Below are positions 676 through 18,588 of a stretch of DNA of 24,000 bases, piece after piece. Position 1 is the first letter of the stretch; every line of letters starts with the position of its first letter. The notes under the pieces are model-generated. The model worked only from the letters and a program-made list of their open reading frames with translations, was not told the origin of the DNA and ran no database searches. The translations under genes were made by a program, and so were the position numbers. The stretch comes from an uncultured Puniceicoccaceae bacterium. Its GTDB lineage: Bacteria > Verrucomicrobiota > Verrucomicrobiia > Opitutales > Oceanipulchritudinaceae. Where the stretch lies: positions 291,219-315,218 of the forward strand of contig CAWVVV010000002.1 of assembly GCA_963933835.1 (NCBI GenBank), written 5' to 3'.

Positions 676-749
676 AGGCCTATGGTGTAATGGTAGCACA
701 GAGGTTTTTGGTATCTTTAGTTGGGGTTCGAATCCCTGTAGGCCTGCCA
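676..749 (+). tRNA. tRNA-Gln (anticodon UUG), 74 nt with encoded CCA
   Basis: Hand-folded cloverleaf. Acceptor AGGCCTA/TAGGCCT (7 bp). D stem GTGT/GCAC with loop AATGGTA. Anticodon stem GAGGT/ATCTT with loop TT-TTG-GT. 4-nt variable region. T stem TGGGG/CCCTG with loop TTCGAAT. Discriminator G plus CCA. Confidence 0.85.
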
Positions 750-12442: not shown

Positions 12443-13255
12443 TTATTTCGAGCGCTGGCGCACGGCTTCGAAGAGAGCGATGCCGGCGGTGACGCTGACG
12501 TTGAGGCTATCGGTGATACCCGACATCGGCAGCTTCGCGGGACGGCAGGGGGCCTCGAGCCATTCCTGCGAGAGCCCTTTGTCTTCGGGTCCGAGGACGA
12601 GCGCGGTGGGGGCCTTTAGGTCGATGTCCCAGAGTTGATCCTCGGCGTGAGGGGTCAGGGTGACGGGCTGGATGTGCTGTTCTTCAAGAAAGAGGAGGGC
12701 TTCAGCGCTGCTTGTTTCAACGATGGGGAGGTCGAAGAAAGCGCCTTGGGAGGCGCGGATGGCGTTTGGATTGTAAACGTCGCAGACGGCATCGCAGAGG
12801 ATGAGGGCATCGGCCCCGGCGGCGTTGGCCGAGCGCATGAGGGCTCCGAGGTTGCCAGGTTTCTCGACCCCTTGAGCGATTAGGAGAAAGGCGGGTTTAC
12901 TAAGAGTAAGGTCTTCGAGTGAGCGGGGGCGCTCGGGGGCGATGCCGAGGAGGCCATCGGGGTTTTCCCGGTAGGCGGCTTTGGCGAAGACGCTCTTGCT
13001 CAGTTGCACGACTTCGATCGAGCGTTCGCTGGCTTTCTCGACGAGGTCCATCGCATCCGGTCGCAGAAAGCTTTCGGGCGCAAAGAAGAGGGTGCTGAGT
13101 TCCCATCCGCTTTCGATCGCGCGCTCGAGTTCACGTTCTCCCTCGATGAGGAAGCAGCCCGCACGGCGGCGGTGGCGGGCGTCGCGCAGCCGGACAAGGT
13201 CTTTGACCCGTGGGTTTTGCAGACTGGTGATGAGATTGGGCGGCGAAGAAGACAT
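12443..13255 (-). CDS. SpoU/TrmH-family RNA 2'-O-methyltransferase (270 aa from ATG 13255)
   Basis: N-terminal substrate-binding region SLQNPRVKDLVRLRDARHRRRAGCFLIEGERELERAI. SPOUT motifs: GVEKPGNLGALMRSANAAGADALIL, NPNAIRASQGAFF, LVLGPEDKGLS, and IPMSGITDSLNVSVTAGIALFE. The 412-aa track ORF extends upstream into the opposite-strand gene, so the upstream part is rejected. Confidence 0.88.
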   Translation of the reverse strand: MSSSPPNLITSLQNPRVKDLVRLRDARHRRRAGCFLIEGERELERAIESGWELSTLFFAPESFLRPDAMDLVEKASERSIEVVQLSKSVFAKAAYRENPDGLLGIAPERPRSLEDLTLSKPAFLLIAQGVEKPGNLGALMRSANAAGADALILCDAVCDVYNPNAIRASQGAFFDLPIVETSSAEALLFLEEQHIQPVTLTPHAEDQLWDIDLKAPTALVLGPEDKGLSQEWLEAPCRPAKLPMSGITDSLNVSVTAGIALFEAVRQRSK

Positions 13256-13339
13256 CGGTGGGCTTGCTGATGAGTGAGGATAAAAACCCGCCAGCCGACG
13301 AGCTGATTTCGAGCGAAGATATGCGTCCTTGCCAGATAC

Positions 13340-14614
13340 GTGCGGAATGGCATCTTCCGCCGACAAGTTGGCCCTGCCAATTTCACTGCCACGATTGTGA
13401 GACTTCCGAAAAAATTCGTCCCCGAACCCTTTGCCTATCACGAGGAGGTAGAGCTGGAGATCAATGACCTGACAAACCTCGGTGAAGGCGTTGGCCGCAT
13501 CGACGATTGGGTCGTGATGGTGCCCTTTGCGCTCCCCGGTGAGCGTGTGAAAGCTCGCATCTGGCGGAACAAAACGAATTACTCCGACGCCGATCTCGTC
13601 GAAGTCCTGAAGGCCTCGCCGGATCGCGTCGAGCCACCCTGTGCGCTCTTTCAAGAGTGTGGCGGTTGTCAGTATCAGCACCTCAGCTATGAGGCGCAGT
13701 GGCGGTGGAAGACAGCGCAGATCGTTGAGCTCATGCGCCGTTTGGCGGGCTTGGAAATTGAAGTCCAGCCGTGCCGGGGTTCAACTGAGGCCTACGGTTA
13801 TCGCTCTAAGCTGACGCCGCATTACCAGCGGCCCAAAGATGGGAAAATGGGCCCGATTGGCTTTCTTCGCTATTCAAGTCGTTCGATCATCGATGTGGAG
13901 CAATGCCCGATTGCCCGCCCATTGATTAATGAACGGCTGACTGAAGAGCGCGCTCTTATGCACGCGATGCCACCTAAAAAGGGCAAGGGCGGCACACTCC
14001 TCCTGCGCGAAGGCGACGATGGGGTGACGACGGACAACAAAGACCTGCGCACGGGATCGGTGGGCGATAAGCGCTTCCAGTTCATCGCGGGGGAGTTTTT
14101 CCAGAACAATCCCTACGTTTTGCCGTTGCTCGTGGAGTACGCGCTCGACGAGTCGGAGAAGGGTGGAGAGCGCTATTTTGTCGATGCTTACTGCGGTGTC
14201 GGGGTCTTCGGAATTTGTGGAGCGGAGCGCTTTGAGGCGGTGGCCGGCATCGAGGTGAGTCCACCCGCCGTCGCGCTGGCACAAGCCAATGCGGCGCTCA
14301 ATGGGGTAAAAAACGCCGATTTTCTCATCGGTTCGGCTGAGGCGATTTTCGAGGAACTGAAATTCCCTGCCGCTGAAACGTGCGTTTTGATGGATCCACC
14401 CCGCCGTGGCTCAGACGAACTATTTCTTTCGCAGCTCGTTGCCTATGGGCCGAAGCGCGTCGTCTACGTCAGTTGTGGCCCCGATACGCAGGCGCGTGAT
14501 CTGCGCTACCTGATCGATCGCGGCTACCGTGTGGAGCGCATTCAGCCCTTTGACCTCTTCCCGCAAACTCGCCACATCGAGAACGTTGTCACCCTGGTAA
14601 AGGAACCAGCGTAA
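13340..14614 (+). CDS. RNA (uracil-5-)-methyltransferase, RlmD/TrmA (RumA) family with TRAM domain and Fe-S cysteines
   Basis: TRAM-like N-terminus (LEINDLTNLGEGVGRIDDWVVMVPFALPGERVKARIWRNK). Cluster cysteines CALFQECGGCQYQHLSY plus EQCPIA. SAM-binding fold DAYCGVGVFGI, then DPPRRG, and catalytic region YVSCGPDTQARD...FDLFPQTRHIENV. The start is uncertain: GTG 13340 or GTG 13397. Confidence 0.88.
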   Translation: MRNGIFRRQVGPANFTATIVRLPKKFVPEPFAYHEEVELEINDLTNLGEGVGRIDDWVVMVPFALPGERVKARIWRNKTNYSDADLVEVLKASPDRVEPPCALFQECGGCQYQHLSYEAQWRWKTAQIVELMRRLAGLEIEVQPCRGSTEAYGYRSKLTPHYQRPKDGKMGPIGFLRYSSRSIIDVEQCPIARPLINERLTEERALMHAMPPKKGKGGTLLLREGDDGVTTDNKDLRTGSVGDKRFQFIAGEFFQNNPYVLPLLVEYALDESEKGGERYFVDAYCGVGVFGICGAERFEAVAGIEVSPPAVALAQANAALNGVKNADFLIGSAEAIFEELKFPAAETCVLMDPPRRGSDELFLSQLVAYGPKRVVYVSCGPDTQARDLRYLIDRGYRVERIQPFDLFPQTRHIENVVTLVKEPA

Positions 14615-14738
14615 GCACTTTTTATGGGATGAAAGGCGATGAGCGCCCTCTATTCCATTGAAATGTCCGCGTTGAAACGCGGTTGCGTCGCAGCGGTAGC
14701 TACACCAGTATAATCCTAATTTTTTACGTCTAGCCTCT

Positions 14739-15248
14739 ATGCATCAGCTGATAGAAGACAACCTCACCTGCCTCGAGCAAGGCATCCAGTTTCTTGGATG
14801 CTTGCCTGCTGAGCTCTACACGACGCCTAGTACGGTGTGTTTTGGTAGCGCAATCGGAGGTCATTTTCGACATAACATTGATCACTACCAGCAGCTCCTC
14901 GACGGGATCGCGAAGGGCCGCGTGAACTATGATGCTCGCTCGCGAGATATCGAAGTGGAAACGCAGATCTCGGTGGCGATCGGCGCGCTTTGGTCGCTCA
15001 AGGGTGGGCTTTCCGCCCTCACGATTGAAGCCGACGACGGGACCGCGCTCGAAGTCATCATGGATGGCGGGGTTGAGGCGCAATCCACGCGTTCCAGCCT
15101 TTCGCGCGAACTCCAGTTTCTCATCAGCCACACGATTCACCACTACGCCTTGATCGTGACGATCTCGCAGACCCAAGACTTTGCTGAATTTCCGGCTGAT
15201 TTTGGGGTGGCTCCTTCGACGCTGAAGTTTCGCTCCCAATCAGCTTAA
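14739..15248 (+). CDS. DinB-like (DinB_2 superfamily) four-helix-bundle metalloprotein
   Basis: 169 aa with spaced histidine motifs GGHFRHNIDHY (N-terminal) and LISHTIHHYALI (C-terminal), typical of the DinB/YfiT-like His-triad fold. First gene of a tight operon. Confidence 0.6.
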   Translation: MHQLIEDNLTCLEQGIQFLGCLPAELYTTPSTVCFGSAIGGHFRHNIDHYQQLLDGIAKGRVNYDARSRDIEVETQISVAIGALWSLKGGLSALTIEADDGTALEVIMDGGVEAQSTRSSLSRELQFLISHTIHHYALIVTISQTQDFAEFPADFGVAPSTLKFRSQSA

Positions 15249-15251
15249 GCG

Positions 15252-15983
15252 ATGTGCACCGTTTCTTGGTCTATAGAAAAGGGCGGATATTGCCTATTCT
15301 TCAATCGCGATGAGCAGCTTACGCGCGCACCCGCTGAGGCGCCCATAGAGTGGGCCGATGAGGCAGGCATATTCTACGGCCCTAAAGATCCGGTCGGCCG
15401 CGGAACGTGGATTGGGGTTAATCCTCAGGGATGGACCTCCGCTGTCTTGAATTATTACGACGCGACTATCGAAGGGCTTGAGAAGCGCCCAAAGAGTCGA
15501 GGCGAATTGGTCAGGTCATTGGCACCGTTGACGGATAACCGACTTGTCAAAGCGGCGCTTTCGAAGCTGGCGAAGAAGGACTTCGCACCCTTTCACTTTT
15601 TGCGGGTTTCGCCCACCGGCGAGGGGAGCCTTTGGACCTCAAATGGCAAGAAATTGAGTGCGTCTGTCGTCGCGACGGAAAGCCTCCCGCTCACGACGTC
15701 TTCGGTCGATACCGAGCGGGTGACCGAGCGGCGCAAGGCGATCTATTCCTCCCTGAATGCGGGGGGCGCTACGTCGGCCGATTCTCTGAAGATGTTTCAC
15801 CGCTATTTTGATACTTCTGATCCCGCAGCGAGCGTGAGCATGCGCCGCGAAGATGCAGAAACGGTCAGCCTGTCTGAGATTTTCGTGAAGGCGAAGCTGA
15901 TCACGTTCGACTACCACGAACGAGCAGATGAAGGCACGGGGTTTAAGTCGCCGGTTAGCCTGAAGATTCAACGGATCAAATAG
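15252..15983 (+). CDS. NRDE-family protein (DUF833; bacterial homologue of eukaryotic TANGO2)
   Basis: Starts MCTVSW with Cys2, which is Ntn-hydrolase-like, and contains the eponymous FFNRDE motif at residues 16-21. Length 243 aa. It begins 3 nt after the DinB-like stop. Confidence 0.8.
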   Translation: MCTVSWSIEKGGYCLFFNRDEQLTRAPAEAPIEWADEAGIFYGPKDPVGRGTWIGVNPQGWTSAVLNYYDATIEGLEKRPKSRGELVRSLAPLTDNRLVKAALSKLAKKDFAPFHFLRVSPTGEGSLWTSNGKKLSASVVATESLPLTTSSVDTERVTERRKAIYSSLNAGGATSADSLKMFHRYFDTSDPAASVSMRREDAETVSLSEIFVKAKLITFDYHERADEGTGFKSPVSLKIQRIK

Positions 15984-15993
15984 AGCCGCGCGG

Positions 15994-18588
15994 ATGAGAT
16001 CGATTTGTCGCTGGGTTTGGGTCCTGTATTTCCTCCTCCTGGCAGCCTCTTATCTTGGGCAATGGATCGTATCTGACACCTCAGCGCTTCCGTCGGGTAT
16101 GCAAATCTTCGAGGTGCCCGAGCGCTTAGCATCCGGAGAACGAACAGGCCGCTTGATCAAGATGGCCACCTACACGAGTGGGCCCGATGAAGGACCCACG
16201 CTCGTTCTGATCCACGGTAGCCCCGTCGCTTCATCGGCGATGCGAGGCCTCAAGCGTGAATTGGAGAAGGCTCTGCCCGATTGGAGAATCCTTGTCCCGG
16301 ACATGCCGGGGCTGGGCGCATCAACGAGCGAAGTAACAGACTACTCGGTCGCGGCGCATGGCTACGCTGTCCTAGATCTGCTCGATGCGCTCGACGTAGA
16401 AGAGGCTCACCTCTTGGGCTACAGCATGGGCGGAGGCGTCATCCTTGAGGTCTCCCGGATCGCGCCGGATCGCATTGATTCATTGATCATGGCGTCGGCA
16501 ATCGGCGTTCAAGCGTATGAGCTTTTTGGATCCTATGAGCTGAACCATTCGGTGCACTGGATGCAGTGGGCCGCGCTGAAAGGCATCGATCTGCTCGTCC
16601 CGCATTTTGGATTCTTCGAGAAGCAGCCCCTGGATTTAGGCTACGCGCGTAACTTTTTGTATACGGATCAAAGACCCCTGAGCGAGGCACTCAAAAGCTA
16701 CGTCGGCCCGATGCTCATCCATCATGGCCGGGCGGATAACTTGATCCCGATCCAAGCGGCAAAGGAACACGCCCGCCTCGTGCCTCAAGCCGAGTTAGAA
16801 CTCTTCGATGGCGGCCACCTCGATGTGATTTCAAATCCGATGCGCTATGTGGCCCTGTTCGCCGATTTCGTTGCTCGTGCTGAGGCGGGTGAAGCGACCC
16901 TTCGAGCTGAAGCAAGCGCCGAGCGTATCAATGCTGCGGATCAGCCTTTTGTCAGGGACCGCAGTTGGCACTACGAGGGGTTAGCGCTCTTTATCGTCAT
17001 CAGTCTCCTCATGGCTGCGACGATGGTCTCGGAAGACCTGACTTGTATTGGCGGAGGCTTACTCGCGGCCAATGGTTTGATTTCACTCCCAGCAGCCGTT
17101 ATCGCGTGCTTCCTCGGCATCTTTATTGGCGATCTACTGCTCTACACGGCGGGGAGATCTCTGGGTCGGAGCGCGCTTTCTCGGAGACCAATGCGCTGGT
17201 TCGTTCGCCCAGAGGCTGAGAAACGCGCCGAGGCTTGGTTCGCGCGGCGCGGCGCGGTCATCATCTTGGTCTCTCGGGTTTTGCCCGGGACGAGGGCGGC
17301 GACCTATTTTACCGCGGGCGTGCTGAAGGCTCCTCTTGGACGCTTTCTCCTTTTCTTTGGGGTCGCGGCCGCGATCTGGACACCGCTTCTTGTCGGAGGC
17401 GCCAGCTTGATCGGGGAGCAGATGCTCAGAGTCTATGCTTCATACGAGGCCTATGCGCTCCCGCTTCTATTGGCGACGGGCTTATGTCTGTATCTGATCA
17501 TTGGATACGGAATACCTGCCTTGAGTTGGGGCGGGCGAAGACTGCTTTTGGGTAAATGGAGGCGCTGTACACGCTGGGAGTATTGGCCGCTCTGGCTGGT
17601 GAATGCACCGGTGTTTATCTACGTCTTGTGGCTTGTCCTTATTCGCTACCGCAAGCCGATGATCTTCACCCTTTCGAATCCCGGGATGCCGCACGGCGGG
17701 TTCATCGGCGAAAGCAAGGGGGATATCTTAGCGAGTATGCCAACCTTTGCCTCACATGTCATCCCATGGGACCGGTGTCCCGTAGGTGAACCGCTGGATG
17801 AGAGAATGGAACGGCTGCGTGCGATTCAGTCGAAGGGTCAGCCTTGGCCAATCGTGATCAAGCCCGACGAGGGTCAGCGTGGTCTTGGGGTGAGAATTGT
17901 TAAATCGGAAGAGGAGGCAAAGGAGACGCTTGGCCACTTGGATGAATCCCTCGTTCTCCAAGAGTTCGTCGATGGCCCTGAGTATGGAGTATTCTACTAC
18001 AGGTATCCTGAGGCTGAAAAAGGAGTGATCTCTTCGATCACAATCAAGCAATTGACCTCTGTGACGGGTGATGGGGAGCGATCGCTTGAAGATCTTATTT
18101 TGGCCGATGATCGCACTGTAGATCGAGCTACCTATTTCCTTGATCAGATGTCTGATGCACTTCTTGAGGTGCCAAAGTTAGGTGAGCGAGTGCCGTTGGT
18201 TGAGCTTGGGACACACTCTCGGGGTGCGACTTTTTTGGATGGAGCTCACTTATTGACAGACGAGCTGCTTGAGGCAGTTGAAAAGATTTCGCGCTCGTAT
18301 GAGGGATTCTACTACGGGCGCTTCGACTTTAAGGCACCATCAGAAGTTGCCCTTCGCGCAGGGCAGGGCCTAAAAATGATTGAGTTGAATGGTCTGACGT
18401 CAGAGCCGACCCACATTTACGCGCCGGGTGCGTCGCTCTTCACGGGGTGGAAGACACTCATGATCCATTGGCACATCGCGATTCGAATCGGGATGCAGAA
18501 TGAACGGGCAGGGATGAAGCCGTCGGCAGTGAAGGACTTTATTCACTGGTGGTGGCTGAGCTATCACCGCCAGAAAAACAAGGGCTAA
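15994..18588 (+). CDS. 864-aa tri-domain membrane protein: alpha/beta-hydrolase + DedA/VTT (SNARE-associated) membrane domain + ATP-grasp ligase
   Basis: N-terminal TM (WVWVLYFLLLAASYLGQWIV). Hydrolase (about aa 60-300): HG oxyanion LVLIHGSP, nucleophile elbow GYSMGG, later GRADNLIP and GGHLDV. DedA core (about aa 330-520): FLGIFIGDLLLYTAGRSLG and SRVLPGTRAATYFTAGVLKAPLGRFLLF. ATP-grasp (about aa 600-864): PIVIKPDEGQRGLGVRIV, LVLQEFVDGPEYGVFYY, VTGDGERSLEDLI, and GRFDFKAP...MIELNGLTSEPTHIY. It starts 10 nt after the NRDE gene. Confidence 0.8.
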   Translation: MRSICRWVWVLYFLLLAASYLGQWIVSDTSALPSGMQIFEVPERLASGERTGRLIKMATYTSGPDEGPTLVLIHGSPVASSAMRGLKRELEKALPDWRILVPDMPGLGASTSEVTDYSVAAHGYAVLDLLDALDVEEAHLLGYSMGGGVILEVSRIAPDRIDSLIMASAIGVQAYELFGSYELNHSVHWMQWAALKGIDLLVPHFGFFEKQPLDLGYARNFLYTDQRPLSEALKSYVGPMLIHHGRADNLIPIQAAKEHARLVPQAELELFDGGHLDVISNPMRYVALFADFVARAEAGEATLRAEASAERINAADQPFVRDRSWHYEGLALFIVISLLMAATMVSEDLTCIGGGLLAANGLISLPAAVIACFLGIFIGDLLLYTAGRSLGRSALSRRPMRWFVRPEAEKRAEAWFARRGAVIILVSRVLPGTRAATYFTAGVLKAPLGRFLLFFGVAAAIWTPLLVGGASLIGEQMLRVYASYEAYALPLLLATGLCLYLIIGYGIPALSWGGRRLLLGKWRRCTRWEYWPLWLVNAPVFIYVLWLVLIRYRKPMIFTLSNPGMPHGGFIGESKGDILASMPTFASHVIPWDRCPVGEPLDERMERLRAIQSKGQPWPIVIKPDEGQRGLGVRIVKSEEEAKETLGHLDESLVLQEFVDGPEYGVFYYRYPEAEKGVISSITIKQLTSVTGDGERSLEDLILADDRTVDRATYFLDQMSDALLEVPKLGERVPLVELGTHSRGATFLDGAHLLTDELLEAVEKISRSYEGFYYGRFDFKAPSEVALRAGQGLKMIELNGLTSEPTHIYAPGASLFTGWKTLMIHWHIAIRIGMQNERAGMKPSAVKDFIHWWWLSYHRQKNKG

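Follow-up and report, generated by a model that had tools for sequence, protein, structure and literature searches.

Acyloxyacyl-amino-acid membrane lipids of the ornithine-lipid type are made by OlsB and OlsA or by OlsF, and OlsC, OlsD, OlsE, and OlsG act as optional, lineage-specific additions on the finished or nascent aminolipid. Marine and soil bacteria contain such lipids in abundance, and little is known about how they are modified. A second described principle is that of the lpiA-acvB operon, in which a lysyl-phosphatidylglycerol synthase is encoded together with a periplasmic hydrolase (PMC13197417). Here, we analyzed a three-gene operon that codes for a DinB-like protein, a protein of the TANGO2/NRDE family, and a fusion of an alpha/beta hydrolase, a DedA domain, and an ATP-grasp ligase. 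The operon lies in a stretch of 24,000 nucleotides (nt), called the window below, of an uncultured Puniceicoccaceae bacterium (assembly GCA_963933835.1, contig CAWVVV010000002.1, positions 291,219-315,218, forward strand). We consider it likely that the module belongs to aminolipid metabolism and, on balance, probable that it is an accessory system which tailors or turns over ornithine-lipid-type membrane lipids, the products of OlsB/OlsA or OlsF. Tailoring and turnover of membrane-lipid head groups is already known as a kind of system; the parts used here and their arrangement are new.

As in the ornithine-lipid pathway, related loci hold the module and the ols genes in one array. The module would also resemble OlsC, OlsD, OlsE, and OlsG in being an addition carried by certain lineages. 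Unlike these enzymes, it would work by ATP-dependent ligation and would employ a Cys-type N-terminal-nucleophile (Cys-Ntn) enzyme, a DinB metal center, and a serine hydrolase. To our knowledge, none of the three proteins falls into the known families that tailor ornithine lipids (hydroxylases and a methyltransferase). The parallel with MprF/LpiA and AcvB/PA0919 lies in a cytoplasmic enzyme that adds a head group, is joined to a lipid-translocating domain, and is accompanied by a periplasmic hydrolase of the same operon, by which the amount of modified lipid is regulated (PMC13197417); for the fusion protein, the corresponding topology is predicted. In contrast to MprF/LpiA, ATP-grasp and DedA domains take the place of the tRNA-dependent transferase and the MprF flippase domains, a single polypeptide carries all three activities, and an aminolipid, not phosphatidylglycerol, would be the likely substrate. 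Pfam and NCBIfam scans of the fusion returned only hydrolase, DedA, and ATP-grasp matches and neither an aminoacyl-phosphatidylglycerol synthase nor an MprF flippase domain. The likeness is one of working principle, and the fusion is an analogue of MprF/LpiA-AcvB and not a member of that group.

Conservation of the operon and its aminolipid neighbors

Two sets of loci were compared with the window. Set 1 comprised 80 genome loci, mostly from Verrucomicrobiota, obtained by scanning one genome per species with an alignment of the DinB protein. Set 2 comprised 80 metagenome loci seeded with the ATP-grasp domain, so that 160 loci were available in the two sets. The content of the set 1 loci was scored by tblastn and by unbiased clustering of open reading frames (ORFs). 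In the DinB-seeded loci, the order DinB-TANGO2-fusion was almost constant while the flanking genes differed, and the same order was found in most of the 160 independently fetched loci, which come from several phyla. TANGO2 was found in 75 of the 81 loci (set 1 and the window), and the ATP-grasp gene in 69. The DinB-seeded loci belong mainly to several orders of Verrucomicrobiota; Kiritimatiellia, Planctomycetota, Omnitrophota, Acidobacteriota, Desulfobulbaceae, Pseudomonadota, and Spirochaetota contributed one or a few loci each. When TANGO2 homologues of about 35% identity served as seeds, all six contexts had a gene for 173-186 amino acids (aa) directly upstream, which was DinB-like by Pfam or tblastn in four and presumably so, by size and position, in two.

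In 64 of 70 loci, the DinB and TANGO2 genes either overlap or lie almost end to end. The stop codon of DinB overlaps the start of TANGO2 in 44 of the 70, and in 38 the overlap is exactly 13 nt. The conserved C-terminal Cys-Ala-(Arg/Gln) found in many DinB orthologues and the Met-Cys-Thr of TANGO2 are encoded by the same bases (e.g., L164:8001-8013), which explains the fixed length. The overlap is a conserved translational coupling of the two genes. The lineage of the window has lost it: the DinB protein ends in ...SQSA, and direct reading of the junction gave TAA-gcg-ATG, i.e., a gap of 3 nt. The junction between TANGO2 and the fusion reads TAG-agccgcgcgg-ATG, with a gap of 10 nt. An earlier note on this DNA had given the same coordinates and spacings (3, 10, and 124 nt, the last ahead of DinB), which proved correct in the ORF list and at the junctions, and had proposed a single transcription unit and a small dedicated pathway. 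The comparison of gene neighborhoods that it had advised showed the genes to be syntenic over several phyla. This synteny and the coupling of DinB with TANGO2 support both proposals, and the transcription unit is further backed by the lack of an internal promoter or terminator consensus, which is a weak test. The three genes form one operon, and this conclusion is well supported.

Chance adjacency of three unrelated genes in a compact genome would agree with the unrelated housekeeping genes that flank the operon in the window and with the short intergenic gaps that are common in bacteria. It is excluded by the synteny. The same order recurs in several phyla despite differing flanks, the 13-nt coding overlap is conserved, and there are domain fusions, namely hydrolase-DedA-ATP-grasp and OlsA-DinB.

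After the core genes and antisense shadows, the commonest neighbor of the module was an aminolipid synthase, present either as an OlsB-like and an OlsA-like protein or as an OlsF-like protein. The OlsB-like proteins matched PF13444 and the NCBIfam OlsB model (4e-37), the OlsA-like proteins PF01553 and the OlsA model (8e-37), and the OlsF-like proteins NF052615 (1e-112). Where the sequence extended for at least 1.5 kb to either side of the module, an ols gene was found no more than 1.5 kb away in 14 of 62 loci from genomes and in 19 of 27 from metagenomes; for metagenome loci with long flanks the count was 13 of 15. Since an ols gene occurs about once per genome, the chance of its adjacency to the module was estimated at well below 1% per locus. 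Many contigs carry co-directional arrays of the type olsB-olsA-dinB-(tango2)-(hydrolase)-dedA-ATPgrasp, and full arrays, olsB-olsA-dinB-tango2-(abh)-dedA-atpgrasp, occur for example in L084, L090, L098, and L169. Two cluster representatives are OlsA-DinB fusion proteins, one of which was found on two independent contigs, where the hydrolase-DedA-ATP-grasp gene follows. Smaller combinations were also observed, namely OlsBA with DinB only (L049 and L057, in metagenome-assembled genomes (MAGs) of Calditrichaceae and KSB1), OlsBA with the hydrolase-DedA-ATP-grasp protein only (L085, L094, L100, L149), and DinB-TANGO2 with OlsF and no ligase. OlsBA and OlsF are non-orthologous solutions for one lipid class, and both associate with the module, which suggests that the lipid product is the shared element. 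LpxI/LpxB, MlaA, and MMPL were other occasional envelope-lipid neighbors. The operon of the window is tied to the ols pathway by association and is not classed as an ols cluster. Full-text literature searches retrieved no paper joining olsB or ornithine lipid with ATP-grasp, DedA, DinB, or NRDE, and nothing was found for TANGO2 with DinB.

Several observations weigh against the assignment to aminolipid tailoring or turnover. The OlsB-, OlsA-, and OlsF-like neighbors score under the equivalog cut-offs of NCBIfam, and these scores do not point to a particular amino acid in the lipid. No ols gene lies within the 24-kb window, which is a further difference from the ornithine-lipid pathway, and in the window's own lineage (set 1, mostly Verrucomicrobiota) no more than about 23% of loci have an adjacent ols gene. 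The direction assigned below to the ATP-grasp reaction and the functions given to DinB and TANGO2 are inferences, and the topology of the fusion is a prediction from hydropathy and the positive-inside rule. The gammaproteobacterial locus L161 pairs DinB-TANGO2 with two soluble ligases and has neither DedA nor an ols gene; this variant suggests that the DinB-TANGO2 pair may serve more than one kind of ATP-grasp product. Finally, simple head-group tailoring does not explain the redox neighbors (DoxX, YHS, Rieske-ferric-reductase, glutaredoxin, and rhodanese proteins).

Domains and predicted topology of the fusion protein

The hydrolase domain matched PF00561 with 90.7 bits (cut-off 25.8, E = 1.5e-25, residues ~60-300), and the DedA domain matched PF09335 with 61.8 bits (cut-off 33.9, E = 1.1e-16, residues ~335-500). 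The hydrolase has an HGSP oxyanion motif and a catalytic triad of S144 (in GYSMGG), D248, and H275, which are retained in 37, 39, and 39 of 40 full-length homologues, respectively. This domain is optional among homologues, and in a Spirochaetota MAG it is encoded by a separate gene. The conserved residues of the DedA domain are E347-D348, R428, P431-G432, and R434, of which E347, D348, R428, and R434 were found in at least 95% of the 40 homologues.

The C-terminal domain gave Pfam matches below cut-off (PF02655 and PF08443, 19.9 and 19.4 bits, near residue 610) and weak matches only in a sequence search of the PDB. Because the PDB sequence matches of this domain and of the DinB protein were weak, their folds had to be assessed by structure prediction. 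For residues 521-864, the AlphaFold model had a predicted local distance difference test (pLDDT) score of 91.4, and its best Foldseek match was the ATP-grasp domain of cyanophycin synthetase 1 (7wae, E = 2.5e-11), followed by GshAB (3ln7, 3ln6) and D-Ala-D-Ala ligases, with E values from 2.5e-11 to 1e-8. The conserved positions are K623, G627-x-R629-G630, Q656, E663, D778, E797, and N799; K623, D778, E797, and N799, which are nucleotide- and Mg-binding positions, are invariant. The model thus confirms an ATP-grasp fold with predicted nucleotide- and Mg-binding residues intact, and the earlier description of a tri-domain fusion with an ATP-grasp part holds, the hydrolase and DedA by Pfam and the ATP-grasp by the structure model.

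Cyanophycin synthetase, GshAB, and D-Ala-D-Ala ligase ligate an amine to an amino-acid or peptide carboxylate via an acyl-phosphate. In the fusion protein, unlike in these three best structural matches, the usual N-terminal substrate domain is replaced by a conserved and probably membrane-embedded segment and the DedA fusion, and the Pfam score stays below threshold. The segment contains a hydrophobic helix (residues 532-550) with positive charge on either side, which was modeled as a helix with high pLDDT (model residues 13-31). Stand-alone ATP-grasp homologues of 335-440 aa begin at this segment. By prediction, it serves as a membrane anchor, interfacial or re-entrant, in place of the usual ATP-grasp N-domain, and the basic residues on both sides make the interfacial position the most likely one. 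An ATP-grasp enzyme that has no N-domain and keeps a conserved membrane segment fits a lipid substrate reaching the active site from the bilayer.

Hydropathy and charge counts placed the N-terminal anchor in N-in orientation, the acidic hydrolase outside, and the strongly basic loops 384-442 and 508-531, together with the ATP-grasp domain, inside; residues 328-507 would form the DedA helices and re-entrant segments. Homologues that have no hydrolase retain an N-terminal transmembrane (TM) helix, a signal peptide, or a short acidic tail ahead of the first TM helix of DedA, which agrees with a periplasmic N-side of this domain. The positive-inside rule thus points to a periplasmic hydrolase and a cytoplasmic ATP-grasp with DedA between them. 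Signal sequences are absent from DinB and TANGO2, and the latter requires a free N-terminal Cys; both proteins should therefore be cytoplasmic. The comparison reveals a family of DedA-ATP-grasp fusions, with or without the periplasmic hydrolase, that looks like an ATP-driven counterpart of MprF plus hydrolase.

The DedA domain also allows a different pathway, in which an envelope precursor linked to undecaprenyl phosphate (C55-P) is modified or recycled, with DedA as the C55-P flippase and a Ddl-like ATP-grasp that adds an amino acid to a lipid-linked intermediate of peptidoglycan or glycan synthesis. DedA proteins are known to move C55-P across membranes (PMC12893004), and the best NCBIfam matches of the domain, below cut-off like its DedA matches in that collection, were UptA-type C55-P transporters (1.7e-16). 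D-Ala-D-Ala ligases are among the nearest ATP-grasp folds, and lipid A genes (L041) and a penicillin-binding protein gene (L164) were occasional neighbors. This pathway is nevertheless improbable, as no mur, pbp, or glycan-assembly gene recurs in the 160 loci, unlike the ols genes. The OlsA-DinB fusion points to an acyl lipid, and DedA members also move phosphatidylethanolamine (PMC10193950).

DinB and TANGO2 proteins and a possible mechanism

The DinB protein of the window scored under the gathering threshold of Pfam PF12867 (DinB_2; 16.6 bits, cut-off 24.8, E = 0.011), and many of its orthologues at 50-70% identity carry this domain. A PDB sequence search with the DinB profile found only 3dka (E = 0.04). 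The AlphaFold model (pLDDT 94.9) was compared with the PDB by Foldseek, and the best matches were 3gor, 3dka, 2f22, and 1rxq (DinB/YfiT). All of the top 23 matches were of the DinB/YfiT type, with probabilities up to 1.0 and TM-scores of 0.55-0.75. According to the model, the protein has the four-helix-bundle DinB fold, and the earlier DinB-like call, which fails at the Pfam threshold, is borne out by the orthologues and the structural matches. The motifs GGHxRHxxDHY (H42, H45, H49), YDxRxR, MD, RELQFLxSHTxHHYA (H131, H134, H135), and FGVAPST are invariant in the subfamily (alignment A1). The six invariant histidines lie in two groups of three, on helix 2 and on helix 4 of the model, and are putatively metal-binding. 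The subfamily comprises 3758 cluster representatives at E<=1e-10 (clusters at 50% identity), so that a large unannotated DinB subfamily (~3,800 representatives) is defined and given a lipid context. An antisense ORF of 169 aa is an almost exact mirror of the DinB gene, and the same shadow was seen in 41 related loci. We do not regard it as a gene; most likely it merely mirrors the coding constraints of the sense frame.

Activation of a thiol by a metal is typical of DinB enzymes. The characterized DinB-fold enzymes are mostly metal-thiolate enzymes, with BstA/YfiT and the mycothiol S-transferase as precedents, and YfiT (1rxq), mycothiol S-transferase (8f5v), MDMPI (2nsg), and EgtB (8vig) are among the structural matches. 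With YfiT/BstA and the mycothiol S-transferase, the DinB protein shares the four-helix bundle and the conserved histidines on helices 2 and 4. The set of a ligase, a DinB enzyme, and an amidase also recalls MshC, MST, and Mca of the mycothiol system. These facts would suit a thiol-based defense against electrophiles or oxidants, in which the ATP-grasp builds a cysteine-containing, possibly membrane-anchored thiol, DinB is the S-transferase, and TANGO2 is an Mca-like amidase of S-conjugates. The resemblance of the ATP-grasp to the glutathione-synthetase half of GshAB and the recurrent neighbors DoxX, YHS (seleno)protein, extracytoplasmic-function (ECF) sigma factor/NrsF, glutaredoxin, rhodanese, and MsrPQ-like proteins point the same way. 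However, the neighborhoods of sets 1 and 2 contain no recurrent gene for a cysteine ligase or for another step of thiol biosynthesis, which also sets the module apart from the mycothiol system. DinB occurs with OlsBA in the absence of any ligase and is fused to OlsA in some genomes. Its best structural matches are uncharacterized DinB proteins (TM-score ~0.6, identity 10-17%), and, unlike the DinB-fold thiol transferases, it has six invariant histidines in place of a simple triad as well as the family-specific motifs YDxRxR and FGVAPST. The DedA domain and the periplasmic hydrolase would be left unexplained. We therefore consider thiol-based defense unlikely. Of the two roles suggested in the earlier note, turnover of an amide-linked membrane conjugate is directly supported by the ols neighbors and the OlsA-DinB fusion, whereas the signs of a low-molecular-weight-thiol conjugate (DinB-family chemistry and redox neighbors such as DoxX, YHS, glutaredoxin, and rhodanese) are indirect.

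The TANGO2 protein matched PF05742 over residues 1-213 with 60.9 bits (cut-off 22.6, E = 2.8e-16). It has a cysteine directly after the start methionine (M1-C2) and the motif N18-R19-D20-E21. Cys2, R19, D20, and E21 are invariant among 73 orthologues, and N18 is present in 70. An alignment with human TANGO2 (8sv7) spans the NRDE, GTW, NY, and RGEL motifs, with Cys2 aligned and N18-R19-D20-E21 placed on human N25-R26-D27-E28. The pairwise similarity is weak (E = 0.012) and, in contrast to the human protein, the bacterial one is a cytoplasmic operon partner of DinB; enzymatic activity is putative for both. According to the crystal structure published in 2026, human TANGO2 is built as a Cys-Ntn hydrolase and is similar to ceramidase, NAAA, bile-salt hydrolase, and isopenicillin N acyltransferase; its proposed substrates are fatty-acid derivatives of more than 500 Da (PMC13044924). 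TANGO2 also binds acyl-CoA (PMC11867700). A fatty-acyl amide or thioester substrate is proposed for the human and the bacterial protein alike (PMC13044924, PMC11867700). Family membership and the human structure (PMC13044924) suggest the alpha-beta-beta-alpha Ntn-hydrolase fold for the window protein, and its conserved Cys2 and NRDE fit the Cys-Ntn reading. The Ntn-type chemistry that had been proposed from these residues is in line with their conservation over the 73 orthologues and with the human structure.

Loss of TANGO2 causes a severe human metabolic disease, and the function of the protein is disputed between haem trafficking, acyl-CoA binding, and Cys-Ntn hydrolysis. If haem trafficking applied here, TANGO2 would be an HtpA-like haem chaperone, and its neighbors would be unrelated or serve cytochrome maturation. 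The Shewanella homologue HtpA (SO0126) was reported to bind haem and to promote cytochrome c maturation (PMC10470608), and haem-b ferric-reductase-domain proteins are encoded in some of the related loci. Against this, no ccm or haem-biosynthesis gene is among the recurrent neighbors in sets 1 and 2, and the conserved Cys2 and NRDE favor catalysis. The 2026 crystal-structure study found nonspecific haem binding (PMC13044924), an eLife paper of the same year challenges the haem role by its title, and most bacterial homologues fail to complement HtpA (PMC10470608). A haem chaperone is thus very improbable in this operon.

In the case of the ATP-grasp-seeded metagenome loci with at least 4.2 kb upstream, TANGO2 was found in only 14 of 32 as against 25 of 32 for DinB. 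TANGO2 is the most dispensable, facultative member of the module, and DinB is the core partner. A strict rule that DinB always accompanies TANGO2 does not hold, as L081 has TANGO2-DedA-ATP-grasp behind an unrelated secreted protein. A mutual replacement of TANGO2 and the periplasmic hydrolase was considered and rejected as not significant (Fisher p values of 0.55 for set 1 and 0.07 for set 2).

All catalytic motifs of the three proteins are intact, and a sequence of steps can be proposed for aminolipid tailoring or turnover, although each single step is tentative. The membrane-anchored cytoplasmic ATP-grasp would activate a carboxylate as the acyl-phosphate. Since every one of the nearest folds activates the carboxylate of an amino acid or peptide, the ligation would most simply take place between an amine or amino acid and the alpha-carboxylate that is free in the amino-acid head group of the lipid; in the converse reaction, the carboxylate of an amino acid would be joined to the free amine of the lipid. 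The DedA domain might then shift the lipid between leaflets, and the periplasmic hydrolase could strip the added group or the ester-linked acyl chain and in this way set the steady-state level. For the coupled cytoplasmic pair, only a reaction class is proposed: DinB, with its putative metal, and TANGO2, as a Cys-Ntn enzyme, may act on the N-acyl amide or on the acyl/thiol donor of the same lipid in turnover, editing, or transacylation. The thiol activated by DinB could be the phosphopantetheine thiol of the acyl donor. An N-acyl amino-acid lipid has a mass of ~650-700 Da, and such a lipid is a candidate for the natural substrate of TANGO2, by analogy with the substrates proposed for the human protein.

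A wider and speculative possibility is that the TANGO2 family as such consists of catalytic Cys-Ntn enzymes, amidases or transacylases, whose substrates are fatty-acyl lipids. They would work with a PlsC/AGPAT-type O-acyltransferase (OlsA) and a DinB metal enzyme on N-acyl-amino-acid lipids or acyl-thioester donors, and the fusion would be a tRNA-independent machine which adds head groups on the cytoplasmic side, carries the lipid through the membrane, and trims it in the periplasm. If this is true, the bacterial operon gives the TANGO2 family its first natural substrate, and the hydrolase-DedA-ATP-grasp fusion is a previously unrecognized machine. There would also be a parallel to human TANGO2 deficiency, in which lysophosphatidic acid is increased and phosphatidic acid decreased, i.e., a defect at the AGPAT step (as summarized in PMC13044924). 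The earlier note had expected a genomic-context handle on bacterial TANGO2, and the aminolipid neighborhood provides a concrete and testable one: the position of the operon beside the N- and O-acyltransferases of amino-acid lipids supplies definite candidate substrates, and Cerasicoccus, Luteolibacter, and Pelagicoccus offer genetically tractable hosts.

Locus features and variant arrangements

The features of the window and the locus examples discussed in this section are collected in Table 1.

Table 1. Coordinates of features in the window and of example loci (L-numbered) from the two comparison sets.
Feature	Position	Strand	Description	Basis
tRNA-Gln	676-749		anticodon TTG	
SpoU-type RNA methyltransferase ORF	12443-13681	-	as mechanically called	
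TRAM/U5-type RNA methyltransferase ORF	13340-14614	+	as mechanically called	
Upstream intergenic region	14615-14738	+	124 nt, after the TRAM/U5-type methyltransferase gene	
TATAAT	14709-14714	+	candidate promoter -10 box	
Antisense ORF	14730-15239	-	169 aa, rejected as a gene	
DinB-like ORF	14739-15248	+	169 aa; DinB-fold protein, putative metalloprotein	ORF list; alignment, AlphaFold, Foldseek
NRDE/TANGO2 ORF	15252-15983	+	243 aa; TANGO2/NRDE-family protein, putative Cys-Ntn amidase or acyltransferase	ORF list; PF05742, orthologue conservation
Fusion ORF	15994-18588	+	864 aa; tri-domain membrane protein, order hydrolase-DedA-ATP-grasp	ORF list; Pfam, structure, hydropathy
N-terminal signal-anchor helix	16012-16071	+	residues 7-26, after MRSICR; predicted N-in	hydropathy and charge
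Alpha/beta-hydrolase domain	16072-16974	+	residues 27-327, predicted periplasmic	PF00561, topology prediction
DedA/VTT membrane domain	16975-17514	+	residues 328-507	PF09335, hydropathy
Linker	17515-17667	+	conserved RGRRLL..WRRxTRWE(F/Y)WP motif and hydrophobic helix 532-550	alignment A2, hydropathy
ATP-grasp ligase domain	17668-18585	+	residues 559-864, predicted cytoplasmic	AlphaFold, Foldseek
Stop codon of the convergent gene	18585-18587	-		
Stop codon of the fusion gene	18586-18588	+	TAA	
Loci with Rieske-ferric-reductase extension	L136:2676-11037, L152:5073-10981, L072:6820-13705, L117:4456-10984, L165:3236-9923			
YHS/DoxX examples	L128:435-1261, L053:9133-9965, L161:3221-4237, L169:9413-9820			

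A perfect TATAAT is located 25 nt ahead of the DinB start codon in the 124-nt upstream region and is a candidate -10 box. A promoter scan found no two-hexamer sigma-70 match on the + strand of this region, and no + strand promoter or terminator consensus was found within the operon by the sigma-70 scan, which is a weak test because the promoter type of the host may differ. Terminator-like matches were at background (7 versus 5.1 expected). An Rfam scan detected no element in the 124-nt region, folding of this leader revealed no significant RNA structure (z=-1.15), and Rfam and tRNA scans gave no regulatory RNA for the operon; the tRNA-Gln gene was the only RNA gene detected in the window. At the other end, the stop codon of the fusion gene shares bases (CTAA) with that of a convergent gene of the Glu/Leu-dehydrogenase (glutamate-dehydrogenase) family, and this overlap at 18585-18588 leaves no space for a terminator between the two genes.

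Base composition is even over the region. The genes that flank the operon in the window have housekeeping functions (YidC, YebC, ZnuABC, RNA methyltransferases, RNase Y, and RNase G), and the RNA methyltransferase gene directly upstream is not conserved beside the module in other loci. The two methyltransferase ORFs, SpoU-type and TRAM/U5-type, overlap by ~340 nt as called. Their Pfam domains begin at residues 156 and 35, respectively, which makes it probable that both genes start further inside the called ORFs and are divergent neighbors. In the source database, the three proteins of the operon are annotated as hypothetical, "NRDE domain", and "DedA/pimeloyl-ACP methyl ester...".

Some arrays are extended upstream by two further genes. 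One product joins a haem-b membrane domain of the ferric-reductase type to a Rieske [2Fe-2S] domain, and the other is a protein of ~250 aa with a twin-arginine signal, conserved Cys motifs, and no Pfam or NCBIfam match. Three of the 80 genome loci and seven of the 80 metagenome loci carry the pair. Genes for a periplasmic (seleno)protein with a YHS domain (NF041384, 4.5e-50) and for a small membrane protein of the DoxX family often stand just before DinB or after the ATP-grasp gene; YHS was present in 14 loci of set 1 and 5 of set 2, and DoxX in 8 and 18, respectively. An ECF sigma factor is often near the loci with YHS or DoxX, and NrsF was seen once. The YHS, DoxX, and ECF sigma neighbors suggest control by envelope or redox stress. 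A literature search for the pairing of YHS with DoxX found no paper.

In 12 of 80 metagenome loci, the ATP-grasp gene is followed on the same strand by a gene for a secreted protein of ~246 aa (e.g., L148:5283-6023), which has no Pfam or NCBIfam match and carries a HELAH (HExxH) motif like that of zinc peptidases. In a Pseudomonadota MAG (L072:12117-12761), hydrolase-DedA and ATP-grasp are separate genes with a 214-aa ORF of no family match between them, and TANGO2 is absent. The array of Amphritea balenae (L161:3221-8798) consists of YHS, a DoxX-like protein, two soluble ATP-grasp ligases, a 442-aa multi-TM protein of no assigned family, DinB, and TANGO2, and one of its two ligases is cyanophycin-synthetase-like (7.6e-45).

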